Under the pieces are notes generated by a model that saw nothing but the letters and a program-made list of their open reading frames with translations, had not been told where the DNA came from and searched no databases. From the NCBI GenBank assembly GCA_043821445.1, contig JBDRCT010000013.1, positions 82,149 through 146,148 on the forward strand: a stretch of DNA of 64,000 nucleotides. Direction: 5' to 3'. Each line of letters opens with the position of its first letter. Positions within the stretch are counted from its first letter, which is position 1. The position numbers and the translations under genes were made by a program. Below, in pieces: positions 8,177-52,279 of this stretch. This DNA comes from Candidatus Omnitrophota bacterium. Lineage in GTDB: Bacteria > Omnitrophota > Omnitrophia > Omnitrophales > Aquincolibacteriaceae.

Positions 8177-8220
8177 GTCCCAATTTCAGATTCTCTGAAA
8201 TTGATAAAAATTGGGACTAC
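8177..8220. repeat. Dispersed palindromic element, copy A: GTCCCAAT-ttcagattctctgaa-attgataaaa-ATTGGGAC-tac
   Basis: Terminal inverted repeats GTCCCAAT/ATTGGGAC, internal perfect hairpin; its terminal GTAG (minus strand) supplies the TAG stop of the upstream permease; see copies at 10925, 51291, 51374, 52236. Confidence 0.6.
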
Positions 8221-9173
8221 CCCTTGATCCCGGTCAATTTGATACCTTCGACGAAAAACCGCTGATTGAATAAAAAGACGATCAAGATCGGCAGGATCAT
8301 CATCATCGACGCGGCCATAAGAAGCGTCCAATCCGTACCGTGCACCCCTTGAAAATAAGCGAGTCCGACCGGCAGCGTATATTTGGTATGCGTGTTCACC
8401 ACGATCAAGGGCCACATCAAATTCATCCACGATCCCATGAATGTAAAAGTGGTCAAAGTCGCTAAGGCCGGTTTTGAAAGCGGAAGAATGATATGCCAGA
8501 AGATCCGGACATACGAGCATCCGTCGATCTTTGCGGCATCTTCCAGGTCTTTAGGCAGCGTCAAAAAAAACTGCCGCAGCATGAACGTCCCGTAAGCGGT
8601 AAAGATCCCCGGGAGGATCAGCGCTTTATAAGTGTCGATCCAGCCAAAATGACGGAGCAGGATGAATACCGGGATCATGGTCACCGCGCCCGGGATCATC
8701 ATGGTCGCGAGATAACTAAAAAAGAGCCTGTCGCGACCCGGAAAATTCAAACGCGCAAACGCGTACGCGGCCATCGCGCTTGTGGCAACCTGTCCGAACG
8801 TAATACAAAAGCTCACCAAAATGGAATTCAGATAGAACTGCGCAAACGGAACCACGGACCAGACCTTCACATAATTCTGCCAGACAAAACTAGTCGGCAA
8901 CCATTCCTGCCACCAGGAACGATTCTCCGAAAAAATTTGTCCCGCATCGGAAAGTGAAGTCGAGACCATCCAAAGGAACGGCGCCGCCATACTCACCGCG
9001 CCTGCGAGCAGGGCCATAAAAAGCACCGCTCTTTGTAATCTTCGCTTTAGGGGCGACTTTTCCTTGAGCTCAGTCACCACCTTCACCACTTTTTTTCTTT
9101 TTGAACGGGAGGCGGACGCGGCGATCTCCTGCTTCATTTCCTCTTGGATCAACGAATCAATGTGATGTCCCAT
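8217..9173 (-). CDS. Carbohydrate ABC transporter permease (MalG-like)
   Basis: 6 TM segments, EAA loop AKIDGCSYVRIFWHIILPLSKPAL. Confidence 0.8.
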   Translation of the reverse strand: MGHHIDSLIQEEMKQEIAASASRSKRKKVVKVVTELKEKSPLKRRLQRAVLFMALLAGAVSMAAPFLWMVSTSLSDAGQIFSENRSWWQEWLPTSFVWQNYVKVWSVVPFAQFYLNSILVSFCITFGQVATSAMAAYAFARLNFPGRDRLFFSYLATMMIPGAVTMIPVFILLRHFGWIDTYKALILPGIFTAYGTFMLRQFFLTLPKDLEDAAKIDGCSYVRIFWHIILPLSKPALATLTTFTFMGSWMNLMWPLIVVNTHTKYTLPVGLAYFQGVHGTDWTLLMAASMMMILPILIVFLFNQRFFVEGIKLTGIKG

Positions 9174-9182
9174 GACTCTCTC

Positions 9183-10119
9183 TTAAGCGTAATGAACAGC
9201 CTTGCCAAAAAAACGCCATTTCACGACCGTGACAGCAAAAATGATCAGGAATAGGACCCATGAAATGGCGGCCGCGTATCCCATACGGTACCATTCAAAC
9301 GCGTTATTAAAGATGTAATAGATGATCGTCGTGGTGGACCCGTTTGGCCCGCCACCCGTCATGATATACGCTTGATCGAATCCCGCCTGAAACCCGCCGA
9401 TTAAGCTCATTGTCGCGATAAAAAAAGTCGTCGACGAGATCTGCGGCCAGGTGACATTCCAGAATTTTTGCCAATTGTTCGCGCCGTCCACTTCTGCGGC
9501 ATCATAAAGATCGCGCGGCACTCCCTGCAACGCCGCTAGATAAAGGATCATATTGTAGCCACCGATCGATTGCCACACGCTCATGATGATAAAAGCCGGC
9601 TTCGCCCACGCTTCGTCCGTAAGCCAGTTCGGTCCGGTCAACCGCAAACCCAGTATATCCCCGAACTGAGCGATCATTGAATTTAAGAAACCGAAATTCG
9701 GATTGTAGATCAACCGCCAGAGCATAAAGATCGCAACGCCCGAACAGATCGTCGGGAGAAAATAAATAGTCCTGAAAATGACCGTTCCCCGGAGCTTTTG
9801 GTTGAGAGCGATCGCCAAAAGGAGCGACCCCGCCATGCTGATTGGAATGGCCGTCATTAGAACGAGCGTGTTCCAACAGTACTTCCCGAAGAACGGATCT
9901 TTGGTTAACTCGATAAAGTTCGTGAGTCCTGCGAATTGCGGACTAGCCGATAAAAGATCCCACTTCACGAAACTTAAGCCCAAGGACGCCAGCACCGGGA
10001 TCGATGTGAATAGAAGGAACCCGAGCAGATTCGGCATAAGAAACCCATACGCCGCGATCGTCTCTTTCGTTTTATCTTTCAATCCGTTTTTCATTTTTAT
10101 TTTCCTGATGTCCCGCATT
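9183..10119 (-). CDS. Carbohydrate ABC transporter permease (MalF-like)
   Basis: EAA loop AAEVDGANNWQKFWNVTWPQIS; track ORF (to 10190) reads through the tRNA, so real start is the internal ATG (MRDIRK..., ~10119) or MKNGLK (~10095). Confidence 0.8.
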
Positions 10120-10126
10120 TCAGATC

Positions 10127-10197
10127 TGCCCCGCCTGGGCTCGAACCAGGAACCTTGCCTCCAAAGGGCAGTGTGATACCATTTCACCACGGGGCAA
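10127..10197 (-). tRNA. tRNA-Gln (anticodon UUG), no encoded CCA
   Basis: TGCCCCG...CGGGGCA 7-bp acceptor stem with U1-A72 and G73 (both typical of bacterial tRNA-Gln), D-arm GTGA/TCAC, anticodon loop CTTTGGA, T-arm CCTGG-TTCGAGC-CCAGG; cloverleaf folded by hand; 27-43 pair is a C/A mismatch. Confidence 0.75.
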
Positions 10198-10202
10198 TAA
10201 CT

Positions 10203-10445
10203 TTACAAAATCGTTCTTAAAAATTTCCTACCAGCCGTACTTTTCAAATAACGCTCACGGATAACGGCCTGCGACCTTGACCCTACGGTTTCATGATACC
10301 CAAGCGCCCAAGGTCTATGGGGTTTTGTTGATCGGCAAAACCCTTGATTATGCACTAAAATCCGCTTCTCTAAGCTGGCTGTCTGCCCAATGTAAATACG
10401 CCCATTTTTTTGGCTAACTAGCACATAAACAAAGTGCTTTTTCAT
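10203..10445 (-). CDS. Small GIY-YIG nuclease family protein
   Basis: MKKHFVYVLVSQKNGRIYIGQTASLEKRILVHNQG...ERYLKS; GIY-YIG (here FVY...IYIG) motif; sits between tRNA-Gln and a tRNA 5'-end duplicate. Confidence 0.8.
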   Translation of the reverse strand: MKKHFVYVLVSQKNGRIYIGQTASLEKRILVHNQGFCRSTKPHRPWALGYHETVGSRSQAVIRERYLKSTAGRKFLRTIL

Positions 10446-10454
10446 AATTTCACT

Positions 10455-10530
10455 CCGCCTGGAAATCTTTGATTTCCAGGACGGATCCGTCCTCAGGCCT
10501 TTGCCTGAGGCGGACACGGGGCAATAACTT
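10455..10530 (-). repeat. Duplicated tRNA-Gln 5' end (TGCCCCGTG + 7-nt flank) followed by three hairpins with AAAG/GAT loops; 5' leader of the GIY-YIG gene
   Basis: 16-nt direct repeat cacggggcaataactt at 10189-10204 and 10515-10530; minus strand reads TGCCCCGTG-tccg-CCTCAGGC-AAAG-GCCTGAGG-ACGGATCCGTCC-TGGAAATC-AAAG-ATTTCCAGG-cGGAGTGAAATtATG, i.e. tRNA-like GTGAAAT resumes just before the GIY-YIG ATG. Confidence 0.55.
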
Positions 10531-10547
10531 ATTTATTTTAAAAAAAA

Positions 10548-10856
10548 TCAACGCTCGAACGGATCGCCATCGCGGAGTGCTTGCGCCTGGGGCTCATGTT
10601 CGATAAAAAGCTCGTAGGCGTTCAGGACCTCTTTTTGGATATAGTCCTTGAACTCCGCTGTAATAGGATGCGCCACGTCCCGGTAATCGTCGCCTTTGAC
10701 CTTGCGGGAAGGCATCACCACGAAAAGGCCCTTCGATCCCTCGAGCACCTTCAGCCCGCGCACTACGAAACAACCGTCGAAGGTGATATTGGCAAAAGCA
10801 CACAGCTTGTTTTCTTTATTCGCTTGGGGAAAAATGCGAATTTCCGTGATCTTCAC
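10548..10856 (-). CDS. spoVG: Septation protein SpoVG
   Basis: MKITEIRIFP...KLCAFANITFDGCFVVRGLKVLEGSKGLFVVMPSRK. Confidence 0.85.
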   Translation of the reverse strand: MKITEIRIFPQANKENKLCAFANITFDGCFVVRGLKVLEGSKGLFVVMPSRKVKGDDYRDVAHPITAEFKDYIQKEVLNAYELFIEHEPQAQALRDGDPFER

Positions 10857-10924
10857 TTCCCAACCTCATAATCTTATGTACTATCCTGACTTTTATTTTC
10901 TTCTCATCAACGGCAGTCGGGATT

Positions 10925-10968
10925 GCCCCAATTTCCGCTTCGCTTCAATTGATAAGTATTGGGACTAC
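10925..10968. repeat. Dispersed palindromic element, copy B: GCCCCAAT-ttccgcttcgcttcaa-ttgataagt-ATTGGGAC-tac
   Basis: Same architecture as copy A; terminal GTAG on minus strand is the TAG stop of ispE. Confidence 0.6.
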
Positions 10969-11840
10969 AATGAGTGACAAATCACCTTGCGAAAAGGAAA
11001 GGGAACTTCTTTCAATCTCTTCGATAGGTCTAAAGCTTCTTTCCGGCTGGAGAACGCTGCGAAGACCGTAGCCCCGCTTCCGCTCATAAGAACGAAGGGA
11101 GCTCCCAGGCCTTTGAGAACCGCCACGGCTTTGGGAATGGACGGCATCAGACGAAATGCCGGGATTTCCAGATCATTCCGCGCAAGCGTCGCCGCTTCCC
11201 AGATCCACTTTTTATTAAGAAAAGAGCGCAGAATTCTAGCAATACGCCTTTCCTTTGTCAAGGAGAGGGGCCGCCCGCCCCAGGAGAGCATTTGGTAGAC
11301 TTTTTTCGTAGGAAGTCCCTGATCCGCCACAAGCAAAAGGAACTCGAGGCGGGTACCCAACGGCGCTTTTTGGAGCCTATCCCCGATGCCCCAAGCCATG
11401 GCTTGCCGCGTGTTCGAAAGAAAGAACGGCACATCCGCACCGAGCTTTTCCCCTATAGAGAAAAGCTCCTTGCGGGAGATCTTGAGCCGGAAAAGTTTTT
11501 TCATGCCTAGTAAGAAGGAAGCCGCGTTGCTAGAGCCACCTCCAAGCCCGGCACCTAGAGGAATACGCTTGGTGAGCCGCACGGAAACTCCTCCCAACCC
11601 TTGGAATTTCCCTTGAAGCGCCCGGTAGGCCTTGGTGATGAGATTGCCTTCCCCGGTTTTGAGAGCGGAAATGTTCGTGGTAAGTTTAAAGCCCCCGGAG
11701 TTTTTTCGAATGACAAGGGTATCTGCAAGCGAGATGCGGTGGAAAAGCGTCAAAAGTTCATGATACCCGTCCGGTCGCTTACCGAGAATACGCAGATGAA
11801 GATTGAGTTTTGCGGGACTTCTAACAGTAAGGTTATTCAT
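10965..11840 (-). CDS. ispE: 4-diphosphocytidyl-2-C-methyl-D-erythritol kinase IspE
   Basis: GHMP kinase; AKLNLHLRILGKRPDGYHEL, IPLGAGLGGGSSNAA. Confidence 0.85.
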   Translation of the reverse strand: MNNLTVRSPAKLNLHLRILGKRPDGYHELLTLFHRISLADTLVIRKNSGGFKLTTNISALKTGEGNLITKAYRALQGKFQGLGGVSVRLTKRIPLGAGLGGGSSNAASFLLGMKKLFRLKISRKELFSIGEKLGADVPFFLSNTRQAMAWGIGDRLQKAPLGTRLEFLLLVADQGLPTKKVYQMLSWGGRPLSLTKERRIARILRSFLNKKWIWEAATLARNDLEIPAFRLMPSIPKAVAVLKGLGAPFVLMSGSGATVFAAFSSRKEALDLSKRLKEVPFPFRKVICHSL

Positions 11841-11946
11841 TTCAGGAATACGGATGGAGGATGGCGGATGGCGTCAAACAACATCTTGCCTTGCGTTCTT
11901 CGCCATCCGCTATCCGCTTCCCGTAACGCGGGACTGGTCCCGCGTT

Positions 11947-12045
11947 TTAGGACCAATCTTTTTTCTTGTGGCGGTGCTTGCGCAACTTCTTCTTGCGCTT
12001 ATGCTTGTTCATCTTCTTCTTGCGCTGTTTACGAGCCCAAGGCAT
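11947..12045 (-). CDS. Very small highly basic protein, possibly ribosomal protein bS22-like (not in ORF track: 32 aa)
   Basis: MPWARKQRKKKMNKHKRKKKLRKHRHKKKDWS; strong SD GGAGG 6 nt upstream of ATG; K/R pattern around M-x-KHK-KKLRK resembles bS22/AURKAIP1-type peptides from memory; a 7-bp hairpin cgcggga-ctgg-tcccgcg directly follows the stop. Confidence 0.45.
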   Translation of the reverse strand: MPWARKQRKKKMNKHKRKKKLRKHRHKKKDWS

Positions 12046-12122
12046 TGTTTCCTCCGGTTGTCAATCATAAGCGGTAAGCGACAAGTTTCTTACAACCTAT
12101 CCCTTATCGCTTTTCGCTGCAT

Positions 12123-12995
12123 TTATGGAATAACTTTATTGAGCGGATATTCGATGATGCCTGAGGCGCCGGCCTTCTTGAGCGCCGGGATCAATTCCCG
12201 GACCACGGACTCGTCAATGATGGTCTCGACGTCGAGCCAATTCTTGTCCGTAAGGTTCGCGATGGTCGGTTTCTTCATGGCCGGAAGGAGGCTCAGGACC
12301 TTTCGCAGGTTCTTCTTCTCGACGTTCATTTTGAGGCCGACTTTCTCCTGGGCGCGCATCGCACCCTCAAGAAGCATAATGAGATTATCCATCTTGTGTT
12401 TCTTCCAGGGATCCTTCGCGCTCTGTTTGTTCGCAATGAACTTCGGGATGGAAACAATCACGGTATCGATGATCTTAAGCCTGTTCGCGCGAAGACTGGA
12501 CCCGGTCTCGGTCGCCTCCACAATGGCGTCCGCAAGGCGCGGCGGTTTGGCTTCCGTGGCACCCCAGGAAAACTCCACTTCCGCGGTCACCTTGTGTTTT
12601 TTAAGATAACGCTTCGTGACGCCCACAAGCTCGGTCACGATCTTCTTCCCGTTCAGGTCTTTGACGCTTTTAAAAGGCGAGGTTTCGTGCACGGCCAGGA
12701 CCCAGCGAACGGGGTTGGAAGTGCGTTTAGAATATTGGAGCTCGCAAAGTTCCACGACCTTGGAATCGTTCTCCACGATCCAGTCATGTCCGGTCAGGCC
12801 GCAGTCCACGATGCCGTCTTCCACATAGCGGGACATTTCCTGAGGGCGGAAAAGCGCCACCTCGATCTCGGGATCATCGATGGAGGGAATGTAGGAGCGG
12901 GGATTGACGCTGATCTTGAAACCGGCCCGCTTGAAGAGATTATAGGTCGCTTCTTCGAGACTGCCTTTGGGTAATGCGATCTTGAGCTTATTCAT
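12123..12995 (-). CDS. hisG: ATP phosphoribosyltransferase, long form with C-terminal regulatory domain
   Basis: [10 protein letters not shown]...[12 protein letters not shown]; 290 aa. Confidence 0.85.
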
Positions 12996-13004
12996 AGAGG
13001 GCGG

Positions 13005-13033
13005 ATTCTAGCTTTTTGCTCCCGGAGTGTCAA
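13005..13033 (-). promoter_or_regulatory. Candidate sigma70 promoter for hisG: -35 TTGACA / 17 bp / -10 TAGAAT, 9 nt before the ATG (near-leaderless)
   Basis: Minus strand reads TTGACActccgggagcaaaaagcTAGAATccgccctctATG. Confidence 0.3.
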
Positions 13034-13050
13034 TCCAGGAAAATAAACTT

Positions 13051-13509
13051 TTATCCGCCTTGCTGCTTTTTGGGAAGCATATTACGTTGGACCTTGGAGA
13101 ACAGCACCAGGATTATCAGCACAAGGATCGTGGTCATCACGGCTTGTTTGTAAAGTCCCAGTCCGCAAGACAAACCGATCGCACAAGCAGCCCATATCCC
13201 CGCGGCAGTGGTCAGCCCCTTGACGCTCCCCGCCTGCGAGCGGATGATCGCTCCGGCGCCCAGAAATCCGATCCCGGTCACGGCCTGCGCTGCGATACGT
13301 CCCGGATCCACGGTAGCGACTCCTTTGAAGATCTCAAAAACGCCAATGGATACGATCATCATGAGCGCCGAACCCAGGCACACGAGCGAATAGGTCTTGA
13401 AACCGGCTTCTTTCCCGTGGACCTCCCGTTCAAGGCCGATCAGAGCCCCTAGCAATGTCGCAACGCTCAATTTGATCGCAAAATCAATGTCCTGCGGCGT
13501 CAAACCCAT
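13051..13509 (-). CDS. mgtC: MgtC/SapB family membrane protein
   Basis: LIGLEREVHGKEAGFKTY...GIGFLGAGAII; start probably MGLTPQD (13509). Confidence 0.75.
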   Translation of the reverse strand: MGLTPQDIDFAIKLSVATLLGALIGLEREVHGKEAGFKTYSLVCLGSALMMIVSIGVFEIFKGVATVDPGRIAAQAVTGIGFLGAGAIIRSQAGSVKGLTTAAGIWAACAIGLSCGLGLYKQAVMTTILVLIILVLFSKVQRNMLPKKQQGG

Positions 13510-13605
13510 AAAGGAACACATGAAAACCCTCCCTCATTCAAATGCGTGTCAAAGTGTCAATGTATCAAAGTATCATGAAACTCTGACACTTTGATACCCT
13601 GATAC

Positions 13606-14604
13606 TTATTTTATTTGAAGTGCCGGATCGCCGGTCATATTAAGTTTCGACCGTTTCCCGTTTTGATAAAGTTCAAAACCCCGGCGTGCGATCATGGCCG
13701 CATTGTCCGTGCTGAGCACAAACGGCGGGAACCAGACCTTGATCCCTAACTTACCGGCGTCCTGCGTGAGTTTTTCGCGCAGATAGGAATTCGCGCTTAC
13801 GCCTCCGCCGACTACGATATCGGACACGCCTTTGAATTGGGCGGCGTCGAGCGCCTTCTCGACGAGCCAGCCGATCACGGCATGCTGAAAACTCGCAGCC
13901 ATATCTTTCTGCGAAGGTGCCAAGGGGTTCGGCTTCCCGGTCTTGGGGTCCCGGAACTGATAGAGCACGGCCGTTTTCACGCCGCTGAAACTGAAGTTGA
14001 ATCGCTTGTCCTGTTTGGGTCTTGTAAAATGAAAAGCCCGCGGGTTCCCTTCTTTCGCGAGTTTATCCAGAATGGGCCCGCCGGGGTAACTGAGCCCCAT
14101 GATCTTCGCGACCTTGTCGTACGCCTCGCCCACTGCGTCATCGACGGTCTCGCCCAGGATATGGACCTTCTCTTTTTCGCAGAATGTGAGCATCGTATGC
14201 CCGCCCGAGACCAGAAGTCCGATAAAACGCTTGGGTTCCCGGGCTCCGAAGAAATTGGCGACCAGATGTGCTTCCATGTGATGGACCCCCACCACCGGGA
14301 TCTCTAGTTGATACGCGAGTGCTTTGGCGAATGCGACGCCGACCAAAAGAGAACCGATGAGCCCCGGGCCTTGGGTTACGGCGATGAGATCGAGATCCCG
14401 GGGTTTGATCCTGGCTTCACGAAGCGCCTCCTCGAACACGCATTGGATCTGTTCCATGCAGTGCCGGGACGCGATCTCGGGCACCACACCGCCGAATTTC
14501 TTGTGCCGGAAAAGACTGGAGGAAACAACATTGGAAAGGATCGTATCTTTGCCGCGCAGGACCGAGCACGACGTTTCGTCGCAGGAGGTTTCGATGCCGA
14601 GCAT
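13606..14604 (-). CDS. tsaD: tRNA N6-adenosine threonylcarbamoyltransferase TsaD
   Basis: MLGIETSCDETS..., HHMEAH, GGGVSAN motifs; real start is the internal ATG at 14604; the track ORF extends upstream through a repeat. Confidence 0.85.
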   Translation of the reverse strand: MLGIETSCDETSCSVLRGKDTILSNVVSSSLFRHKKFGGVVPEIASRHCMEQIQCVFEEALREARIKPRDLDLIAVTQGPGLIGSLLVGVAFAKALAYQLEIPVVGVHHMEAHLVANFFGAREPKRFIGLLVSGGHTMLTFCEKEKVHILGETVDDAVGEAYDKVAKIMGLSYPGGPILDKLAKEGNPRAFHFTRPKQDKRFNFSFSGVKTAVLYQFRDPKTGKPNPLAPSQKDMAASFQHAVIGWLVEKALDAAQFKGVSDIVVGGGVSANSYLREKLTQDAGKLGIKVWFPPFVLSTDNAAMIARRGFELYQNGKRSKLNMTGDPALQIK

Positions 14605-14608
14605 GTAA

Positions 14609-14674
14609 TGCGCACAACGTGCAGGGCGCAACGCTCCCTTTTGTTTTGTTGTGCGTTGAGCGTTGCGCGTTGCG
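14609..14674. repeat. CAACG/CGTTG-rich palindromic intergenic element, copy 1, filling the gatB-tsaD spacer exactly
   Basis: gcgcacaacgtgcagggcgcaacgctccc-ttttgttttgtt-gtgcgttgagcgttgcgcgttgcgc; similar elements at 24781 and 58701. Confidence 0.5.
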
Positions 14675-16177
14675 CTAACTCGCGAGTTTTTTCTGGAGGA
14701 TTTCATTGACGATCTTCGGATTCGCTTTCCCCTGCGTCTCTTTCATCACCGCGCCGACAAGAGCGCCGAGGGCCTTTTGTTTCCCGGTCTTGAACTCCGC
14801 GACCGCGGCGGGGTTCGCGGCGATGGCCTTCTCGACCGCCTTCTCGATCAACCCCGTGTCCGAGACTTGCGTAAGGCCTTTTTCTTTGACGATCGCTTCC
14901 GCGGCCTTGCCGGTCGCCGCCATCTCCTGAAGTACGTCCTTGGCAGTCTTTCCGCTCAAGGTCCCCTGTTCGACAAGACGGATCAGCCCTGCAAGCGCGT
15001 GCGGTGAGACGGAGCAATCCTCGATCGCAATATTTTTCGCGTTCAAGAGGGCGAGAAGCTCGTTCTGAACCCAGTTGCTCGCGAGTTTAGCGGGGGCCCC
15101 TTCGCGAACACAGGACTCAAAATATCCCGCGAGTTTCTTCTCCTGCACCAGCACATAGGCGTCATATTCCGGAATGCCGAATTCCCTGATGAACCGCTTC
15201 GCGCGTTCAAGCGGCAACTCGGGCAAAGTCTTGCGGACCTCTTCGACGGTCTCGCGGGTGAGCGTGAACGGGACAAGATCCGGCTCCGGGAAATAGCGGT
15301 AATCATGGGCTTCTTCTTTGGAGCGCATGGAAAACGTCGTGCCTTTGGCATCATTCCAAAGCCGCGTTTCCTGGACGATCGTTTCCCCGTTCTTGAGCGC
15401 TTCGGTCTGCCGCTCAATTTCATACTGAATGGCTTTTTGCACCATCTTAAAAGAATTCAGGTTCTTGATCTCGACCTTGGTGCCTAATTTTTCCTGGCTC
15501 ACGGGCCGCACCGACACGTTCGCGTCACAGCGAAGGCTCCCCTTTTCCATATCACAGTCGCTCACTTCCAGATATTGAAGAATAGCCTTTAGCGCGGTGA
15601 GGTAATCGTAAGCCTCCTGCGGGCTCCCGAGGTCCGGCTCGGAAACGATCTCAAGAAGCGGAATGCCGCCCCGGTTATAATCCACCAGGCTCCCGTCCGC
15701 AATGCCTTCATGAAGGAGTTTTCCCGCGTCCTCTTCCAGATGCGCGCGTGTGATGCCGATCCGTTTTAAGACCACGGACGACAGACCACAGTCTACAGCC
15801 CCTGCTTTTTCCTTTTTTGCTGCGGTCTTCGGTCTGCAGTCTGCAGTCTGGGTTTCGATATCGACGAAACCTTTACCGTTCACCGGCATGTCAAATTGCG
15901 AGATCTGGTAGGCCTTGGGAAGGTCCGGATAAAAATAATTCTTCCGGTCGAATTTGAGCCGCTCCGCCACCTTGCAATTGAGCGCAAGCCCGACCCGTAT
16001 CGCAAGCTTCAAGGCCGCTTCGTTTAGGACCGGCAACGATCCCGGCCAGCCAAGACACACCGGACACGTATGCTTGTTCCCCTCCGCTCCAAACTCCGTG
16101 GAGCATGAGCAGAAGAGCTTCGACTTCGTTTTCAGTTGTACGTGGACCTCAAGCCCAATGACGGGTTCGTAGTTCAT
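14675..16177 (-). CDS. gatB: Asp/Glu-tRNA amidotransferase subunit B
   Basis: MNYEPVIGLEVHVQLKTKSKLFCSC...; full-length GatB with a ~25-aa palindromic in-frame insert (15781-15860); ATG has no SD. Confidence 0.9.
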   Translation of the reverse strand: MNYEPVIGLEVHVQLKTKSKLFCSCSTEFGAEGNKHTCPVCLGWPGSLPVLNEAALKLAIRVGLALNCKVAERLKFDRKNYFYPDLPKAYQISQFDMPVNGKGFVDIETQTADCRPKTAAKKEKAGAVDCGLSSVVLKRIGITRAHLEEDAGKLLHEGIADGSLVDYNRGGIPLLEIVSEPDLGSPQEAYDYLTALKAILQYLEVSDCDMEKGSLRCDANVSVRPVSQEKLGTKVEIKNLNSFKMVQKAIQYEIERQTEALKNGETIVQETRLWNDAKGTTFSMRSKEEAHDYRYFPEPDLVPFTLTRETVEEVRKTLPELPLERAKRFIREFGIPEYDAYVLVQEKKLAGYFESCVREGAPAKLASNWVQNELLALLNAKNIAIEDCSVSPHALAGLIRLVEQGTLSGKTAKDVLQEMAATGKAAEAIVKEKGLTQVSDTGLIEKAVEKAIAANPAAVAEFKTGKQKALGALVGAVMKETQGKANPKIVNEILQKKLAS

Positions 16178-16293
16178 AAACTAGTACGGGGTACGGAGTA
16201 CGGCGTCTCGCGTTCTTTTTTCATGTGCGCCGCACACCTTCCGCCTCTCGCAGTTTTCCGGACTTCAAGTCCAATGACCGGTTCGCAATTCAT
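16174..16293 (-). CDS. 39-codon bridging ORF whose first 11 codons are a diverged duplicate of the gatB start (MNCEPVIGLEV...)
   Basis: ATG overlaps the TGA of the 341-aa ORF (ATGA) and its TGA overlaps the gatB ATG (ATGA); 28/33 nt identical to gatB 5' end, 4 of 5 substitutions synonymous. Confidence 0.4.
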   Translation of the reverse strand: MNCEPVIGLEVRKTARGGRCAAHMKKERETPYSVPRTSL

Positions 16294-17315: not shown

Positions 17316-17640
17316 ATTTTTTATGCCCCCATAAAAGTATGTATAAAGTAGGTGTCCTCCGCCATAAAACTTTGGCGGACAAGTGCAGCTGGACGCCCTA
17401 TAAAGTAGGCGTCCTACAACTGAACACCCTACGTATTTTCTTCCAATATTTCCGTCGACGGAAATATTGGCCGGTCACTTCGATTCATCGGACGTCCGAT
17501 AAATCTACCGAACGCCCAATTCTCAATTTTTCCGCATGCGGAAAAATCTGCCGAGACCCTCAACCCTTCAATTTTCCCGCATGCGGGAAAATCTGCTGCT
17601 TATCCCAATTTCCCCACATGCGGGGAAATCGTTCTGCACC
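17316..17640. repeat. Array of different perfect palindromes (28, 14, 20, 22, 20 nt) and CCCAATT + hairpin modules upstream of the 341-aa ORF
   Basis: ccaatatttccgtcgacggaaatattgg (17443-17470), atcggacgtccgat (17487-17500), tttttccgcatgcggaaaaa (17527-17546), attttcccgcatgcgggaaaat (17571-17592), tttccccacatgcggggaaa (17609-17628); direct repeat tataaagtaggYgtcct at 17342 and 17399. Confidence 0.65.
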
Positions 17641-43840: not shown

Positions 43841-43973
43841 GCAAGACCTCCTTGAATTAGCGTGAAAAGAAATAGGTGTTACGTTTCTTAGGAAGATGCT
43901 ACTCAAAAAGATGTGGCTGTCAATCTTTTTTAGATTACTCGTCTAATGCTTGAGTTGACCCTTCCAGAAAGTT

Positions 43974-45742: not shown

Positions 45743-45767
45743 AACAATTCTCCTGTAATTAAAAGAT

Positions 45768-47108
45768 CTATTGAATGGCATGTTTGTGGTTGCCCGCTAA
45801 AAAATCCACTACGAAAAACGCGGCATTGTCCGTTTTTTCGCCGCCCGCATAGACCGTGTGCGAATATTGCAATTTCACATCTACATACTCGCTTTGCCAG
45901 AAGATCAAATAAGGCGAAACCGATGTGGTGCCATGCTGACCGGAGACATCGAGCGGATTAACATAATCAAAACGGACTCCAGGGCTTAACCTCGGGGAGA
46001 GCTTGTACTCCACAAGCGAATAAAAACCCCATGGCTTTGCATTGGTGGAATTAACAAGATCCGGTCTGTTCTGAAAATAAATCTCGTTCTGCCATGTCAT
46101 CTGTTTCCCCTCAGGCAGGAACCAATTAAAGGTGGCATCTCCCCCATACACCTTTACACCATACCAATCGGTTCCTTCCGGTCGTGTCCATTCCGTGGTC
46201 GTTCCGCTACCGTCATCGATCGTTAACGGCGGATTGACGGTCCCGAACATTGTCGTCCAGCCTAATTCCAGATTTGTATCGGACGATGGCTCAAAGAAGG
46301 TTTTGAGGTGCGTATTGAAAATAGGACGTCTCGAAACCCCGGCAAAACTCGCGCCGTTATTTCCCCGCAAGATTTCTCCGGTAACCTCTAAAGGCAGATC
46401 CCAGGGATTCGGAATGTTGTTCCTAAGACGCAGCCCGGATGAAGACAATCCTTCGTCCCCGAAAAAGTTCTGGATAACTAGCGGATAGTCCGCCGCGGGT
46501 AGTGCGTGGGCATGCATGAGATTCGCTTTTCCGATGTTGGCGCGGAATTTGCCGATCTGTCCCGTGAACCCAAGTGGCAATCCCCATCGGGTGTAATATG
46601 CCTCTTCGAGATGAATGACATGCTCCTCGATATGATCGTTAAGACTGATCGTTGCATCAAACCGGGAGTAGGGATCCACCACTTGCCCCAGAGTAATTTC
46701 AAACTCTTTCAGCGCGGTCGCGTTATTGCCCTCCGTGTCCGACTTGTTCTGGGTCAATTTTGTTTGCACCGTCCCCGCAATCCCGATATCCGGGTTCCAT
46801 CCTGCATTGGCCTTGGGATTTGCCAGCGTAGGGGTTTGCGGTATCGCTGCGGCTTGGAGAGGGAGCAAAGTCTGTTTTTTCTCAAACACCTCGATCCGAT
46901 AATTTTGCCGCTCGATAATTTCGTTTTGGGCCCGGACTGTCGATTTCAGGACTTCCATATTGCTTTCCATGGTGGCAACCATCCGTTTGATGTCCGCCAT
47001 TTCCTGCACAAGGTTTGGCCTGCCATTGGGTTCAGCCAATGCAGTTCCGATAGGGCCGAGGTAAAAAAGAGACAATAAAAGAGAAAATATCCATAGATGA
47101 AGTCGCAT
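45768..47108 (-). CDS. Putative outer-membrane porin with N-terminal coiled coil, upstream of znuA/B
   Basis: Signal peptide, coiled coil (MESNMEVLKSTVRAQNEIIERQN), beta-rich body. Confidence 0.5.
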   Translation of the reverse strand: MRLHLWIFSLLLSLFYLGPIGTALAEPNGRPNLVQEMADIKRMVATMESNMEVLKSTVRAQNEIIERQNYRIEVFEKKQTLLPLQAAAIPQTPTLANPKANAGWNPDIGIAGTVQTKLTQNKSDTEGNNATALKEFEITLGQVVDPYSRFDATISLNDHIEEHVIHLEEAYYTRWGLPLGFTGQIGKFRANIGKANLMHAHALPAADYPLVIQNFFGDEGLSSSGLRLRNNIPNPWDLPLEVTGEILRGNNGASFAGVSRRPIFNTHLKTFFEPSSDTNLELGWTTMFGTVNPPLTIDDGSGTTTEWTRPEGTDWYGVKVYGGDATFNWFLPEGKQMTWQNEIYFQNRPDLVNSTNAKPWGFYSLVEYKLSPRLSPGVRFDYVNPLDVSGQHGTTSVSPYLIFWQSEYVDVKLQYSHTVYAGGEKTDNAAFFVVDFLAGNHKHAIQ

Positions 47109-47150
47109 AGTGACACTCCTTTCCTGCGTTGTGAATCGGAAGAAAAATGC

Positions 47151-47450
47151 TTAGAAAAGGACGGGGGGCGCTCGGCCGTGTATCGGGGAAAGGAATTTAA
47201 ACGGTAATGATTGTCTAAATTCTGAGAGGTTAAATCGTTCTTGCTGCATCCTGAGAAAAAGAAGAAAAACACAGAAAAGAATGAATCCAAGCGCAATAAC
47301 AAATTGGCATAAGGGGCAACGATCCCCGTCATCCTTATCACCGTCATGATGGGACGCGTGGATCAGAGGATGGAAGGCGAGCGCAGCAAATCCTATCAAT
47401 AGAAGGATTGCTGCAAAATGGAACGCTTTATTTCTTTGGAATAGAATCAT
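47151..47450 (-). CDS. Small His/Cys-containing membrane protein (hypothetical)
   Basis: 2 TM; HASHHDGDKDDGDRCPLC; overlaps an alternative-frame ORF, weak. Confidence 0.3.
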   Translation of the reverse strand: MILFQRNKAFHFAAILLLIGFAALAFHPLIHASHHDGDKDDGDRCPLCQFVIALGFILFCVFLLFLRMQQERFNLSEFRQSLPFKFLSPIHGRAPPVLF

Positions 47451-47520
47451 AATTCCCCCAAATGAGAAGGAAGATTACACCCTACAAGAGCAGCCATCAA
47501 TAAAAAATGCGCCCCAAAAC

Positions 47521-48243
47521 CTAGGTCGATTTTTCGGCCATGCGGGAGTGTATGGTCTCGCTCAATTTTGAGAAATCGCCGGGCTCGAGATGGGCCGTCT
47601 CGACGGGCTCCAGAACGGTCAGGTTGCAAAAGACCTTGGACTTCATAATCCAATCCCCTTTAGGGATCGCATGCCTCGTTCCGCTGATGACGACCGGAAG
47701 AACCGGGACTTTTTCGGAAATGGCCAGTTTGAAAGCCCCAGCCTGGAAAGGGTTCATCTCCTCCGTTTCGCTGCGCGTCCCTTCCGGAAAAAAAAGAACG
47801 GACATCCCCGACCGGAGATACCGGATCGCTTCCCGGTAAACATCGCGGATGCTGGCCCGGTCATTGCGCTTCAAACGGATGTGTCGGCAAAGCCCGAGAC
47901 ACCATCCCAAAAAAGGAACACTGAAAAGACTTTCTTTCGCCACCCACTTGAACTGCAGGTGAAGCTGGTATAGAACCACGATGTCCGCCAAACTCTGGTG
48001 ATTGGCCACGATCACATAGGTGCGTTTGGGGTCCGCATTCCCGAGACCGTTCACCTTCAGTTTCCAATACGGACTCAGGCCGATCACGGCGTTTGACCAC
48101 CAGAAACACTGCCGGTGCAGGATCTTTCTCTGTTGATCAAAAGGAAAACAGACGGCAAGAAGGGCCAGCTGGACCAGATAAAGAAGCGCGATCAGCAAAA
48201 CACAGCTGACCCAGAAAAAAATAGATAGTAACGCGTTCAGCAC
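47521..48243 (-). CDS. plsC: 1-acyl-sn-glycerol-3-phosphate acyltransferase (PlsC-like)
   Basis: NHQSLADI and FPEGTRS motifs. Confidence 0.8.
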   Translation of the reverse strand: MLNALLSIFFWVSCVLLIALLYLVQLALLAVCFPFDQQRKILHRQCFWWSNAVIGLSPYWKLKVNGLGNADPKRTYVIVANHQSLADIVVLYQLHLQFKWVAKESLFSVPFLGWCLGLCRHIRLKRNDRASIRDVYREAIRYLRSGMSVLFFPEGTRSETEEMNPFQAGAFKLAISEKVPVLPVVISGTRHAIPKGDWIMKSKVFCNLTVLEPVETAHLEPGDFSKLSETIHSRMAEKST

Positions 48244-48250
48244 AAACTCC

Positions 48251-48514
48251 TTAGCGGCGGTGAAAGATCATAAAAAAAATGGCCAGACTTAAAGCTGCGA
48301 GAATGGCACCGAGGATCCGGGTATTCCGGACTTCGCGCGGTTCATCGATCGGGGCCACCTTCCAGTTGAAGCGCTCCATGATCCATTGATAAAGACCTAT
48401 CGACCGCTTGGGCCAACCCACTGACAAAGCACCCACGGCGAGACCCAAACAACCGATCCCGAGAAAAACAAGTTTTGTAGCCATGAAACAACAACTGCTA
48501 AGCGGACATTGCAT
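48251..48514 (-). CDS. Small hypothetical membrane protein
   Basis: 2 TM segments; ORF only. Confidence 0.3.
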   Translation of the reverse strand: MQCPLSSCCFMATKLVFLGIGCLGLAVGALSVGWPKRSIGLYQWIMERFNWKVAPIDEPREVRNTRILGAILAALSLAIFFMIFHRR

Positions 48515-48669
48515 ATTCTTCTCCTTTCAATCTGGCGTTCCTACGCGAGAACCTCCGCGTAATTCCGAATCCTCTTGATAGGGTTTAGCGTTCAGGATAT
48601 AGGGTATAGGAAAATCACGACTGCCTCAACGCCAAACTCTTTCTATCCTCTATTCTCTAAACCTATACC

Positions 48670-50721
48670 TTATTTTGTGTCTTCCCACGCGCTACGATAA
48701 CCATTCACGGATTCGACGTAGCGAAGCAGCTCTTCGAAAAAGGCGTGGTTGGAAAGGGTTGCGCTGTCCCCGATCATGATGAGCTTGCGCTTGGCACGCG
48801 TCATGGCAACGTTCATGCGGCGCGTATCGGTCAAAAAACCCAGCTTCCCTTCCCGGTTGGAACGGATCAGCGAAACGATCACCGCTTCTTTTTCCCGGCC
48901 TTGGAACGCGTCCACGCTGTCGATCTCCAGCGCCGCTAAGTCGCCCGAATCACCTTTTTCGCCAAGGATCATCCCCGTCAGGAGCTTCACCTGCGCGCTG
49001 TAGGGGCTGATGATCGCAATTTCTTCCGGCGGCACGCCGGCTTTGATCAGACGGCTGAGCTCCTTCACCACAAGCTTCGCCTCCTGGGAATTAGAGCGGC
49101 TCTCGGTCCCCTCCTCGACCTCCTCCTCATACCCCAGCCCGGCAGTGTCCAGAAAAACAACGGGCGTTCCATCCAGGCCTTCAGTCTTCACATTCGAAAG
49201 GTCTTTCAGCTCGTGTCCCGCAACCGACGGATCGGCCGTGAGCGCGCTATCGTAGAATTCCCGGGATGAGAAATTCATGATGTCCTTATGCATCCGGTAT
49301 TGCCGCTCCAGCCGTACCTTGAACTTTGCGTCCAGGACTTCATGCAACCGCTCGAAAAGCGTGAACCCCAGGCCTCGTTCGCCGGGACGCGACCGGAAGA
49401 CCGTTGGCGGAAGCTGACAATGGTCCCCCGCCAGAATGACCTTGCCCCCGTGACGCATCGGGATCCAGGTCGCAGGTTCGATCCCCTGCGTCGCCTCATC
49501 CAGGATCACCCAGTCGAAGGCCTTGGCGCGAATGAGCGGATCGCCGCAAACCGTATGCGTTGCCACGATCACGTCGGAAGCGTTCCAGACCTGTTTGAAG
49601 ATCTGCGTCTTGAGATCGCGGATATCGTCGCGAAGCCTGTTCACCTCGTTGCGCATCTCGTTACGTTCTTCCCACGACATGACCCGCCGGTCCTGCCGCC
49701 TTTCCTTTTGACGGACAAACTGTTCGAGCTGTGCCTCATGAGCATCGATCATTTTTGCGTAGGGATGCGCGGCAAGCTTATAGCTCAAGGTATGCTCACG
49801 GACCCGTTCGGTAATACGCGCCGGATGGCCGAGACGCGTCACGGGGACCTTTTTTTTCACGAGACACTCCACCAAGTGATCGCATGCGGCGTTGCTCGGG
49901 GCCGAAACAAGAACGGTCTGGCCTTTTTGAAAAGCCTGATGAATGATCTCGGTCAACACCCGCGTTTTTCCCGTCCCCGGAGGCCCGTGAATGAGTAGCA
50001 TATCTTCGGCCTCAAGCGCCATCGCGACGGCTTTTTTTTGGTCACTATTGAGCGTCGGATCAAAACTCCGGAATACTTCTGCAGGGACAGGATCCCCCCA
50101 AAGGGGTTTTTTGAGACCGAGACTGATATCCCTGAGCCGGGCGACCTTGGAATGTTCCGCGGTACGCGTCATTTGCAAAGCTTCATACATGCGCTGATAC
50201 GTGGTTCGGTTTTCGGAAAGGTTGAGTTGGTAACTTTTTTCACTCTCGACCCACCCCGGGATCCTGCCACTGAAAGCGACCGTGATGCTGGAACGGTCTT
50301 TTTCATAGATCGTCCCAGAGGGGCAATCCTCCGGGGGTGTTTGGAAACCGGAAAGTGAAACGACGTCGCCTGGATCCAGCGAATAACGCGGCAAAGACCG
50401 GCCGTTCTGGAGCGCAAAGGTAAGAAGCTTCTGGCCTGAAGGGTTGTAATGGGTTTCCAGAAGATCGAGCCGGAAAATGGCTTTGCCTCTTTTTTCACGC
50501 TCTTCGGGTTTTCGATCCAGAAAATCCGTCTTGAAGCGGCCCTGCTCTTCGCGTTCTTCGTCACGGAGAAGGCGTGTCAGACGGAGAAAATGCTTTTCGA
50601 TGACGGCCTCGTCGCCGACCCAGATCCTCCGCTCTTCTTTTTTCTCGACTCTCGGAGGAAGAGGCGGTTTGGAAAATTTTTTTTTGAATTTCCGCGGTCT
50701 ATCACGATAGGTGTGGGCCAT
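48670..50721 (-). CDS. Superfamily I helicase, Upf1/DNA2-like (AAA_11/AAA_12)
   Basis: GPPGTGKTRV, ILDEATQ, LAGDHCQLPPTV, RRMNVAMTRAKRKL. Confidence 0.8.
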   Translation of the reverse strand: MAHTYRDRPRKFKKKFSKPPLPPRVEKKEERRIWVGDEAVIEKHFLRLTRLLRDEEREEQGRFKTDFLDRKPEEREKRGKAIFRLDLLETHYNPSGQKLLTFALQNGRSLPRYSLDPGDVVSLSGFQTPPEDCPSGTIYEKDRSSITVAFSGRIPGWVESEKSYQLNLSENRTTYQRMYEALQMTRTAEHSKVARLRDISLGLKKPLWGDPVPAEVFRSFDPTLNSDQKKAVAMALEAEDMLLIHGPPGTGKTRVLTEIIHQAFQKGQTVLVSAPSNAACDHLVECLVKKKVPVTRLGHPARITERVREHTLSYKLAAHPYAKMIDAHEAQLEQFVRQKERRQDRRVMSWEERNEMRNEVNRLRDDIRDLKTQIFKQVWNASDVIVATHTVCGDPLIRAKAFDWVILDEATQGIEPATWIPMRHGGKVILAGDHCQLPPTVFRSRPGERGLGFTLFERLHEVLDAKFKVRLERQYRMHKDIMNFSSREFYDSALTADPSVAGHELKDLSNVKTEGLDGTPVVFLDTAGLGYEEEVEEGTESRSNSQEAKLVVKELSRLIKAGVPPEEIAIISPYSAQVKLLTGMILGEKGDSGDLAALEIDSVDAFQGREKEAVIVSLIRSNREGKLGFLTDTRRMNVAMTRAKRKLIMIGDSATLSNHAFFEELLRYVESVNGYRSAWEDTK

Positions 50722-50840
50722 GATCAATCCTCAAACCGTTGCAACAAGTTAAGGCATGTTGCAGGACGTTACATGAAAAGCGATAAATGCATCTTGACGT
50801 AACCTGAGGCAACCTCCTGCAACCCCTTGTAACCTGATCA

Positions 50841-51257
50841 TCATTCTCCAAGGATCTTGACGAGCACGCGTTTCCGACGGCGGCCGTCGAACTCGGCATA
50901 AAAAATACGCTCCCAAGTCCCGAAATCAAGGCATCCCTTCGTGATGGCGACCATGACCTCGCGACCGAAAAGCTGGCGCTTGACATGGGAGTCGCCGTTA
51001 TCCTCGCCGGTCCGGTGATGACGATACCCCTTGAGATCGTAGGGCGCCATACGCTCGAGAAAATCGTCGAAATCCTGAATCAGACCTGGCTCGTCGTCAT
51101 TGATGTAAACGCTTGCGGTGATGTGCATGGGGTTGACCAGGCAAAGGCCCTCCTGAACGCCGCTTTTCATGACCGCGGCTTCGACTTGGGGCGTGATATT
51201 GATGTAATCGCGTTTTTTCTTTGTTTCGAACGAGAGATATTCGGTGTGTGTTTTCAT
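50841..51257 (-). CDS. yjbQ: YjbQ/UPF0047 family protein
   Basis: 138 aa; sequence pattern recalled as YjbQ family. Confidence 0.7.
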
Positions 51258-51290
51258 GGCTTACCTCCTTGATAAAGGAATGTGGGTAAT

Positions 51291-51600
51291 CTAGTCCCAA
51301 TACTTATCAATTTCATCCTTAATGAAATTAGGGCAATCCTTGTCACCCTTTGGTAAAAAATCCAAGACAAGGATAGTCCCAATACCTATCAATTTCAATG
51401 AAGTTGAAATTGGGGCCGTCCTGACTACCATTCGGAAAAAGAAAATAAAAGTCAGGACCGTCCTTGTCCCAACCCTGTAAAAAACTTAAAGGTGGTTGGG
51501 ACTATACTGATTACCATTAATTTTGGATAAAAATCAGTATGCCGACCATTTGAGAAAAAATCCGAGGCAAGGATAGCACGAAGACGGGGGCGAACAAAAA
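51291..51600. repeat. Dense cluster of the GTCCCAAT...ATTGGG palindromic elements (copies D 51291-51337, E 51374-51416, degenerate copies) plus nested inverted/direct repeats
   Basis: ctaGTCCCAATacttatcaa-tttcatccttaatgaaa-ttagggcaat; atAGTCCCAATacctatcaa-tttcaatgaagttgaaa-ttggggc; GTCCCAA..23 nt..TTGGGAC (51466-51502); direct repeat aaaaaatccRagRcaaggatag at 51355 and 51555. Confidence 0.55.
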
Positions 51601-51679
51601 AGACCTCCGCCCCATCTTTGTCTGGATGGGGCAAAGGTCAATGATCTGAAACTCCGAGCTTTTTACGGGAACGTCCGGT

Positions 51680-52057
51680 TTATACCGGAAGTGCTTGACT
51701 TATGGTGGTCTCAGAGAATTTTTCGGCGATCGTTTCCGGTTTCATGATGGGCTTATAGTCGGTCGAACCGGGAAAAGGAAAGGTCGCGACGTCATAGATC
51801 CCGGCCCCGACCCTCAAGAGTGCATACCCGATCCCCCGCCCGATGCTCACGACAAATCCTGTGAGATAATCCGGACTCTTCTCCATCGCGGTGGGCACTT
51901 GCATCACGAGTTCTCCCGGACCGGTCACAATATTCGTCACTCCGCGACCGAACTTGTCGAGCGCCTTAGTGGAATTCATTTTTTCTGCAAGAGCGGCTTC
52001 GGCGTGAGCGCCCGAAAACACCCATACGACGGCGAGGAATAGAGCAAATTTTTTCAT
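51680..52057 (-). CDS. Small secreted protein, possibly exosortase-associated TIGR04073-like
   Basis: Signal peptide; FGRGVTNIVTGPGEL motif; weak. Confidence 0.35.
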   Translation of the reverse strand: MKKFALFLAVVWVFSGAHAEAALAEKMNSTKALDKFGRGVTNIVTGPGELVMQVPTAMEKSPDYLTGFVVSIGRGIGYALLRVGAGIYDVATFPFPGSTDYKPIMKPETIAEKFSETTISQALPV

Positions 52058-52235
52058 TTTAAGATTCTCCTTTTCTCATTCAAACCCATTCGTTCCATCC
52101 CTAGGTATCGACCATTTTATGTCTTTTTTAATTTTTTTTGAACACTCTTCTTCAGCGCCGTTCTCCAATTAATTTGATGGGTTAACGGTACAGCCCAAGT
52201 CTCTTGTTTCATTTCCAGAAGGGTCGACTTGGACA

Positions 52236-52279
52236 GCCCCAATTTCCGCTATGCGGAAATGGATAAGTATTGGGACTGC
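52236..52279. repeat. Dispersed palindromic element, copy C: GCCCCAAT-ttccgctatgcggaaa-tggataagt-ATTGGGAC-tgc
   Basis: Internal hairpin ttccgc-tat-gcggaa is nearly the same module as the island arrays (ttccgcatgcggaa). Confidence 0.55.

Follow-up and report, generated by a model that had tools for sequence, protein, structure and literature searches.

A short two-hairpin mobile element often found behind TAG stop codons in Candidatus Omnitrophota genomes

Short palindromic sequences recur between the genes of a Candidatus Omnitrophota bacterium, and they raise a simple question: are they fixed regulatory sites or elements that move and, if they move, how do they come to lie flush with the ends of genes? 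The stretch of DNA considered here, hereafter the window, comprises 64,000 nucleotides of contig JBDRCT010000013.1 (assembly GCA_043821445.1, positions 82,149 to 146,148 of the forward strand). A first-pass annotation of this window had described a family of ~45-bp palindromes that donate stop codons and resemble mobile repetitive extragenic palindromic (REP) sequences or miniature inverted-repeat transposable elements (MITEs), rather than a fixed regulatory site. The comparison with related genomes leads to the same general answer: the element belongs to a known kind of bacterial 'junk' repeat, of which it forms a new family, and is not a regulatory site. No relevant description of repeats in Omnitrophota or Omnitrophica was found in the searchable literature.

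The five good copies originally reported are present in the window, in numbers far above chance. The pattern CCCAAT-N20-34-ATTGGGAC gives five matches against 0.02 expected, and the 21-mer GTCCCAATACTTATCAATTTC, with up to three mismatches allowed, gives five against 0.00. A covariance model of the element, named R1, recovers the five known copies and also weaker relatives at 4200-4286, 51466-51540 and 57486-57583. Read in the direction (T)AG-TCCCAAT, the orientation adopted here, the element is on the minus strand in copies A, B and C and on the plus strand in D and E. The size of ~45 bp has to be revised, since a second hairpin lies behind every copy (A, 8135-8176; B, 10881-10924, and C, 52191-52235, both with the terminal trinucleotide included; D, 51335-51373; E, 51417-51460) and the real unit is ~85 nt long.

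The basic unit, of ~82-85 nt, is composed on its top strand of hairpin 1, a 3-nt linker, hairpin 2 and a terminal trinucleotide. Hairpin 1 has GTCCCAA/TTGGGGC as its outer stem, which is invariant; a one-sided bulge of 10 nt, TACYTATCAA, opens on the 5' side, and the inner stem and the loop vary. The linker has the form C-N-R. Hairpin 2 consists of a 9-bp stem of free sequence and an A-rich loop, (A)ACCATT..GAAAAGAA..AAA, and the terminal trinucleotide is Y-R-G, in most copies TAG. The consensus of 70 copies from the window and its relatives, aligned with MAFFT, is nTAG TCCCAA TACYTATCAA TTTCAG-loop-CTGAAA TTGGGGC AA TCCTTGTC (A)ACCATT..GAAAAGAA..AAA GACAAGGA TAG. According to this anatomy, the 'terminal inverted repeats' of the first-pass annotation are the outer stem of hairpin 1 and not the ends of the mobile unit; its TTGATAAGT box, read on the other strand, is the one-sided bulge of hairpin 1.

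The two-hairpin structure is well documented by covariation. In the 70-copy alignment, standard pairs are found in 97.5% of the cells and double-sided changes in 206 cells, while only 28-57% are paired in a control in which the partners were slid by 1-3 columns. Seven of the nine pairs of hairpin 2 covary, and stems as diverse as CCTTGTC, CCTGACT, CCCAACT, CCCGACT, CCAAACT and CCAAGTC are each accompanied by a matching partner. The T5.G44 pair is a wobble in 69 of the 70 copies, with a 3' G that lies outside all search patterns; since the same position on the opposite strand would give an A.C mismatch, the conserved fold belongs to one strand. In silico folding of the single-stranded DNA yields both hairpins in four of the five window copies (z between -3.9 and -4.5). 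The left end (TCCCAATACC...) and the complement of the right end (TCCTTGTCTT...) share only TCC...GGA, three constant bases; terminal inverted repeats of at least 10 bp are absent, and changes at the right end are matched by its own partner.

Variant forms of hairpin 1 were also noticed, often in the same chains as the standard form. They keep the outer stem and the bulge and carry another inner stem: TCCCGCC...GGCGGGA in the first variant, and ATCGAAGC...GCTGAGAT with the bulge CCCAATCA in the second. They occur at several loci of one metagenome-assembled genome (MAG), JAHFHJ (L058, L070, L073, L091, L097 and L105), and at L031, L045, L051, L061 and L102.

The element is mobile, as deduced from reciprocal filled and empty sites, from occupancy in one species only, from the two orientations and from tandem and nested copies. 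Two close relatives were compared, MAG JAZDFE (locus L029), 90-97% identical to the window, and MAG CAZPCF (L033), 85-88% identical; the origin of the window in an Omnitrophota genome follows from this likeness as well. An 80-bp module pair at 4204-4281 of the window corresponds to a single CTAG, that is, an empty site, in L029, which is 92-97% identical there. Conversely, L029 carries a full unit exactly on the TAG stop of the peptidyl-tRNA hydrolase gene (pth), flanked as TAG...TAG, where the window is empty (4431-4433, minus strand). L033 contains three modules at a site where the window (9174) has none, and it lacks copy A: there the permease stop TAA overlaps the glmU ATG (TAATG, about position 2350 of L033). 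Seven more filled/empty pairs were found, the first by a systematic search of flanks (L051, L006, L039 and L100) and then at L031, L109 and L105. Among 166 pairs of orthologous intergenic regions, 37 have a copy in at least one species, and in 31 of these 37 it is present in one species only. Tandem arrays are found in L102, L028, L073 and L005, copies nested within the loop of another hairpin 1 in L007, L030, L051 and L083, and, in MAG JAHFHJ, a unit lies within the loop of another type of hairpin module at seven places. JAHFHJ has also undergone a recent, genome-specific burst, with 40 pairs of copies at least 95% identical; the copies of the window, on the contrary, have all diverged from one another. 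With respect to the genes, as called by our own codon model, 54 copies are antisense to both neighbours, 30 are sense, 12 lie in divergent regions and six in convergent ones. This mixture of orientations excludes a cis-acting RNA that needs a single one.

Outside the window, the 20-mer AGTCCCAATWYYTATCMATT was scanned in one genome per species and matched at least 113 loci. Among the matches listed, 99 of 113 loci belong to MAGs labelled Candidatus Omnitrophota or Omnitrophica, or to MAGs without a label in which the element is complete; among these, CAZPCF and CAYZYT, for instance, also show synteny with the window. The remaining 14 are chance matches to the 20-mer (~17 expected, by estimate) in which the rest of the element is absent, and they score no more than 21.5 bits with model R1, against 60-100 bits for true copies. 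Within this set the element is therefore nearly exclusive to Candidatus Omnitrophota MAGs, with at least 20 species bearing it and many copies per genome (at least 18 loci in JAHFHJ and at least 13 in JAZDFE). In 686 kb of Omnitrophota sequence, R1 gives ~150 matches of at least 45 bits. Viral contigs yielded two chance matches to the 20-mer and none to the model. Searches against Rfam 15 at the gathering score found only tRNA in the window, none of it within copies; at 14 loci their only matches, a tRNA and a fragment of a group II intron, are in L018, neither of them within a copy; and on 51200-52400 of the window, at E up to 10, they returned noise only. In L018 (1-299) this intron fragment (RF02003, 50.2 bits) and a tRNA adjoin a copy at the contig end.

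How such an element enters the junctions between genes is best understood from its flank. Immediately 5' of the unit stands a trinucleotide that in nearly all cases repeats the unit's own last three bases; flank and terminal trinucleotide are the same in 73 of 112 copies, in the classes TAG, CAG, CGG, CCG and TGG. The flank is non-palindromic and is always found on the hairpin-1 side (TAG 88 times, CTA never). In the 35 copies whose retrieval did not depend on the search pattern, the flanks are TAG (10), CGG (9), CAG (4) and CTG (4), again with no CTA. Of the GTAG motif first proposed for this position, the part retained 5' of the hairpin is TAG or CAG, in more general terms YRG, and the first G is not conserved. 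In nine filled/empty pairs a single YRG is present when the site is empty and a YRG stands on both sides when it is filled (TAG/TAG in L029, L027/L110, L039 and L017; TGG/TGG in L011).

It is important to note what this position means for the genes. Because the unit is placed 3' of the TAG, a TAG stop stays intact after the insertion, and the element can therefore enter gene junctions of few bases; empty orthologous sites are frequently 0-11 nt long. Of the 148 TAG stops sampled, 13 coincide exactly with the 5' edge of a copy, although TAG is the rarest stop (21%); the claim that the element lies flush with gene ends and donates their stops is thereby supported. In the window this is the case for the ABC permease gene (copy A, 8217-8219), for ispE (copy B, 10965-10967) and for AMMECR1 (first module of the chain that contains copy C). 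When the unit is antisense, its CTA complement often runs into the start codon of the gene beside it, the two overlapping as CTATG (L027, L073, L095 and L076); in L027/L110 it is the MAKRK gene whose ATG adjoins the element. New copies also land behind the terminal TAG of resident ones, forming head-to-tail chains since each module ends in YRG and thus offers a new target, or inside hairpin loops, which produces the nesting. Several calls of open reading frames (ORFs) extend into the element.

The linker is complementary to the flank in most classes: CCG with CGG (6/6), CGG with CCG (2/2), CCA with TGG (1/1) and CTG with CAG (nine copies), while CAA with TAG has a central A.A. The nine copies with a CAG flank have not only the linker CTG but also a 3' trinucleotide that is CTG instead of CAG, and one filled/empty comparison, within L039, is among them. 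As a target duplication would give CAG twice, these copies, together with the locked orientation, favour insertion with no duplication. At the orthologous sites L081 and L090, flank, linker and terminal trinucleotide differ jointly (TAG/CTA/TTG against CAG/CTG/CTG), and the bulge of hairpin 1 likewise varies with the class of the flank. The complementarity of the linker, the CAG/CTG copies and the joint change in L081 and L090 speak for a 3' trinucleotide that is part of the element and for a target that the element itself may read.

Taken together, the absence of terminal inverted repeats, the two unlike hairpins on one strand, the strand-specific T.G wobble, the covariation at the end and a target that is locked in orientation and matches an internal sequence suggest mobilisation by an HUH enzyme. 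The family would consist of short non-autonomous DNA elements moved as single-stranded hairpins by an HUH tyrosine transposase supplied in trans, of the IS200/IS605 TnpA type or like the REP-associated tyrosine transposases (RAYTs); a probability of about 0.6 is assigned to this interpretation. The reaction would be of the 'peel-and-paste' kind, in which the two hairpins would serve as the element's left and right ends, target and cleavage motifs would be provided by the trinucleotides at the flank and at the terminus, and the linker, perhaps also the bulge, would be the DNA 'guide' that reads those motifs.

Several results weigh against this interpretation. The enzyme has not come to light in the sample: a scan for the HUH and tyrosine motifs in all ORFs of ~750 kb around copies gave no match, a phmmer search of every ORF in the window and loci (~750 kb) with E. 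coli RayT as query returned one spurious junk ORF (E = 0.025), none of the hairpins 1 of 137 copies is followed by an ORF, and no protein is multi-copy within a MAG at the loci examined. IS608-type elements have a strong lagging-strand bias. Here, the top strand coincides with the G-rich one in 48 of 94 events (p = 0.92), GC skew being only a proxy for the replication strand, and the folding energies of the two strands are nearly equal in silico, with no preference. Part of the flank conservation was imposed by the method, because the A at position -1 was fixed by the search pattern in 102 of 137 copies. The correlation between flank and linker rests in part on composite copies possibly of one origin, so its counts may be inflated, and the filled/empty data fit insertion behind TAG by a TAG-ended element and a true 3-bp duplication equally well. 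Finally, copy A is missing the customary TAG at its 3' side. Inverted pairs of units are rare, and they enclose housekeeping genes; the ORFs in between encode HPr, small secreted proteins and a lipoprotein.

The known systems nearest to this one are protein-less derivatives of IS200/IS605, the REP, BIME and REPIN sequences with their RAYT, TA-duplicating MITEs and integron attC sites. In IS200/IS605 elements, transposon-adjacent motifs, like the transposon-encoded ones, pair with DNA guides beside subterminal palindromes, and protein-less derivatives exist, the palindrome-associated transposable elements or PATEs (PMC10055086). RAYT/REP systems are domesticated relatives of elements of the IS200/IS605 type (bioRxiv 10.1101/2021.07.10.451892). 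The present element shares with the PATEs of Haloquadratum (PMC3119063) and with PATE-like ISGst (PMC10055086) the unlike imperfect palindromes near both ends on one strand, the lack of terminal inverted repeats, and insertion directly 3' of a short asymmetric motif that has a similar counterpart at the 3' end of the element. As in them, the motifs would match an internal 'guide' beside the foot of a hairpin, and the element is non-coding, its enzyme presumably being encoded elsewhere. It differs from PATEs in being much shorter (~85 nt), in a motif that abuts the hairpin without a spacer and has only 3 nt, in having no GC-skew orientation bias, and in forming chains of several types of hairpin module; no cognate TnpA, TnpB or IscB was identified in the ~750 kb around copies. 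In the IS608 family the motif is of 4-5 nt. Despite the absence of a strand bias, a PATE-like element is the best fit.

The resemblance to the REP, BIME and REPIN sequences of Enterobacteria and Pseudomonas is also considerable: short extragenic imperfect palindromes in high copy number that cluster at gene ends, a conserved (G)TAG-like motif at the 5' foot, long persistence with strong conservation within a lineage, and possible co-transcription with neighbouring genes. The specific REP/RAYT label is nevertheless not supported. The present unit is made of two different hairpins side by side and is neither a REP singlet of ~20-40 nt nor an inverted REP doublet, its trinucleotide is repeated at the 3' end, its host phylum is outside the described range of REPIN-RAYT systems, and no RAYT was found in the 750 kb sample, which is too small to exclude one. 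REPIN populations persist for a long time (PMC8049555; 10.1101/2021.07.10.451892), and the conservation of hairpin 1 recalls this behaviour. Hairpin 1 retains an identity of 0.89-1.0 between orthologous sites, against 0.34-0.9 for the 150-nt flanks, which points to purifying selection or to homogenisation among copies. A more ambitious version of the HUH interpretation, in which the element is a long-lived replicator of many Omnitrophota species whose own 3-nt linker chooses the insertion trinucleotide, usually the TAG of a stop so that even overlapping genes can be parted, and whose hairpin 1 is under purifying selection, an architecture not described before, is tentative and should be regarded as rather doubtful.

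Among the alternatives, the one that survives best is a MITE of the classical type. A DDE transposase (IS5/IS1031-, IS630- or Harbinger-like) would move it as double-stranded DNA and duplicate a 2-3-bp target containing TA. Correia, RUP and Stowaway-type MITEs typically have such targets and a length of ~100 nt. MITEs that duplicate TA, such as Correia/NEMIS in Neisseria, RUP in Streptococcus pneumoniae, and ERIC, are ~100 nt long and intergenic, have TA at their junctions and vary in presence between strains, and their insertion beside gene ends can affect expression. The present element is like them in size, intergenic place, variable presence and TA at the junctions. A trinucleotide that is single at empty sites and stands on either side of the insert at filled ones would agree with a duplication, and tandem copies share a single TAG, which is what insertion into an earlier duplication would give. 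But Correia/NEMIS, RUP and ERIC carry long inverted repeats at their termini and fold into a single long hairpin, they are moved by DDE enzymes and use symmetric targets, and the present element has no such repeats and an asymmetric target. A transposase that binds double-stranded DNA would not tolerate a right end that varies freely as long as it is paired, nor does this explanation fit the orientation-locked flank, the unequal CAG and CTG of the nine copies or a flank that tracks an internal linker. As no transposase gene was seen near copies either, a DDE-moved MITE is considered unlikely.

Clearly less probable still is a regulatory or structural RNA of the host, acting in cis at fixed sites as a switch in the 5' untranslated region (5'-UTR), an attenuator, an mRNA stabiliser or terminator, or a small RNA that titrates a protein, with mobility secondary or absent. 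The covarying stems, the better conservation of hairpin 1 than of its flanks at orthologous sites and the presence of copies inside operons of housekeeping genes would agree with it, as would the AAGGA of the 3' arm of hairpin 2, which lies 3-6 nt ahead of the starts of glmU in the window and of infA and map in L076 and L092. Since AAGGA is at the Shine-Dalgarno distance in these few cases only, this supply of a ribosome-binding site is incidental. Presence/absence is the rule rather than the exception, tandem arrays and nesting occur, the orientations are mixed, the neighbouring genes are functionally unrelated, the next start codon is mostly 35-900 nt away, no T-run follows the hairpins and no Rfam family matches, all of which are difficult to reconcile with fixed regulatory sites. 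Three narrower candidates of this sort were set aside. A riboswitch or other 5'-UTR element is ruled out by the two orientations and the widely varying distances to start codons; a CsrA-type sponge or small-RNA array, by a GGA that is not conserved in the loop of hairpin 2 and by arrays antisense to the genes on both sides; and a promoter reading of TTGATA / TATCAAT seems improbable, as inspection by eye showed no consistent -35/-10 spacing.

Just as improbable is a family of recombination sites used by a site-specific recombinase on folded single strands, as in integrons, or moved by another route such as retro-mobilisation. In integron attC sites one folded strand is active, as an imperfect hairpin with unpaired bases, structure is conserved over sequence, and the core sites are RYYYAAC...GTTRRRY; the strand-specific imperfect hairpin with an unpaired segment, the structural rather than sequence conservation of hairpin 2, the short repeated core that flanks the insert and the outer stem GCCCCAA...TTGGGAC are loosely reminiscent of them, but the present copies are dispersed and without ORF, cassettes or co-oriented arrays beside an integrase, they have AAT/ATT in place of the AAC/GTT triplets, no recombinase or reverse transcriptase recurs beside them and no ribozyme or intron family matches within them.

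The individual copies of the window illustrate both the regular unit and its variations. Copy A (8135-8219, minus strand; hairpin 1 at 8177-8217; 88.4 bits; z = -3.9) follows the TAG at 8217-8219, the stop of the permease gene. The AAGGA of its hairpin 2 (8135-8139) is 5 nt ahead of the second glmU ATG (8127-8129), and the first ATG (8133-8135) overlaps with it. Copy A thus parts the permease stop from the glmU start, and its AAGGA now occupies the position of a ribosome-binding site for the second ATG; it is a natural case of an insertion that breaks translational coupling. Copy B (10881-10967, minus strand; hairpin 1 at 10925-10965; terminal TAG; 83.1 bits) is located upstream of spoVG, behind the ispE stop. 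The inner stem of its hairpin 1 is decayed, with three broken pairs, and good folding has been lost (z = -0.3).

Copy C belongs to a chain of four abutting hairpin modules (52155-52322, minus strand) that starts at the TAG stop of AMMECR1 (52320-52322). The first module is an inverted one with an ACCAT loop (52278-52320), which abuts this stop. Copy C is the second module, with the flank CAG at 52276-52278, hairpin 1 at 52236-52276 and a terminal CTG after hairpin 2 (85.2 bits), and the chain is closed by the module GTACCGTT...AACGGCGC at 52155-52191. Orthologous copies are present in L054 and L099.

On the plus strand, copy D (51292-51376; flank TAG at 51292-51294; hairpin 1 at 51294-51334; 63 bits; z = -4.5) is antisense to the genes on both sides and shares its terminal TAG (51374-51376) with copy E (51374-51460; hairpin 1 at 51376-51416; linker CCG at 51416-51418; 99.3 bits). 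The hairpin-2-type module of copy E, TCCTGACT...AGTCAGGA-CCG at 51419-51460, looks like an insertion behind the linker. At the orthologous site L108 has a single hairpin 1, against two in the window. A composite follows at 51461-51576 (plus strand, 20.5 bits), formed by the arms of an outer hairpin 2 (51461-51466 and 51568-51573) and a terminal TAG (51574-51576). What had been taken for degenerate copies at 51466-51545 are instead related single-hairpin modules nested inside this outer hairpin 2, GTCCCAACC...GGTTGGGAC at 51466-51502 and TACTGATT...AATCAGTA at 51505-51539, an arrangement that recurs in L108.

The related module pair at 4204-4281 (plus strand, 32.3 bits) is made of GTACCGTT..AACGGTGC and GTACTGCG..CGCGGTGC; it ends in CTAG, was inserted behind CTAG, and sits upstream of the gene for ribosomal protein S6. 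At 57486-57583 (plus strand), two abutting hairpins, GCCTCTATT...AATAGAGGC and GTCCTGGTT...AACCAGGAC-TG, with a loop of the ACCATT type, match weakly (17.3 bits, E = 0.02) and are possible distant relatives of the element. The genes beside the window copies are ordinary housekeeping genes: glmU, two ABC permease genes, spoVG, ispE, UPF0047, AMMECR1, pth and S6.

Other features were observed in the surroundings of the copies. A GC-rich hairpin at 51602-51639, GACCTCCGCCCCATC/GATGGGGCAAAGGTC, followed by a T-run on the minus strand, directly adjoins the D/E cluster and is likely the intrinsic terminator of a 125-aa gene (51680-52057) without a Pfam match. All genes called in 1-13000 and 49000-54000 are on the minus strand except the last (53783-54886, plus), and the cumulative GC skew declines steadily over the entire window; this suggests that the window is part of one replichore, with genes co-oriented with replication. 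Many Omnitrophota MAGs also contain a conserved non-coding region of ~330-400 nt, GGGAAGTGTGTTTCGCC...AACACACTTCCCGCC...GGCGAAGGGTTGAGACGAGGCACGC-[unit]-AAGGACGAGCGGGCAGGGAC...GGTGACGAGGCTCAAGCC, for example in L080 (6100-6450), L014 (6160-6760, minus strand), L022, L113, L068, L049, L086 and L075. It always includes one two-hairpin unit at the same position, with extra units in L014 and L049. MAG JAZDFE has four copies of it, often at contig ends, and the equivalent site in the window (63356-63383) is empty. Segments of the region are complementary over long range, Rfam gives no match even with E relaxed to 1, and the region could represent either a structured RNA not yet described or a larger mobile element.

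The finding has several implications for the biology of these organisms. Omnitrophota are uncultured bacteria, many of them very small, and the regions studied here are tightly packed. An 85-nt element that wedges itself between genes 0-11 nt apart, which is possible because it lands on a stop codon and the stop survives, shows how repeats can invade compact genomes. From a practical point of view, its copies break MAG assemblies and mislead gene callers, while their pattern of presence and absence is a ready-made strain marker. The two notable features of the family are the stop-codon target and the apparent 3-nt target code carried by the element. If the linker sets the target, this would be a compact natural case of DNA-guided single-strand transposition with a 3-nt code, and a lead to its enzyme. 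The conservation of hairpin 1 raises the same question as the REPINs do, namely whether the element is a parasite or a maintained partner. Were it a long-lived replicator guided by its linker, this would imply a dedicated, possibly new HUH partner enzyme, or a role for the host such as punctuation between cistrons, and it would extend a partnership of the REPIN-RAYT kind outside the lineages where such systems were described.

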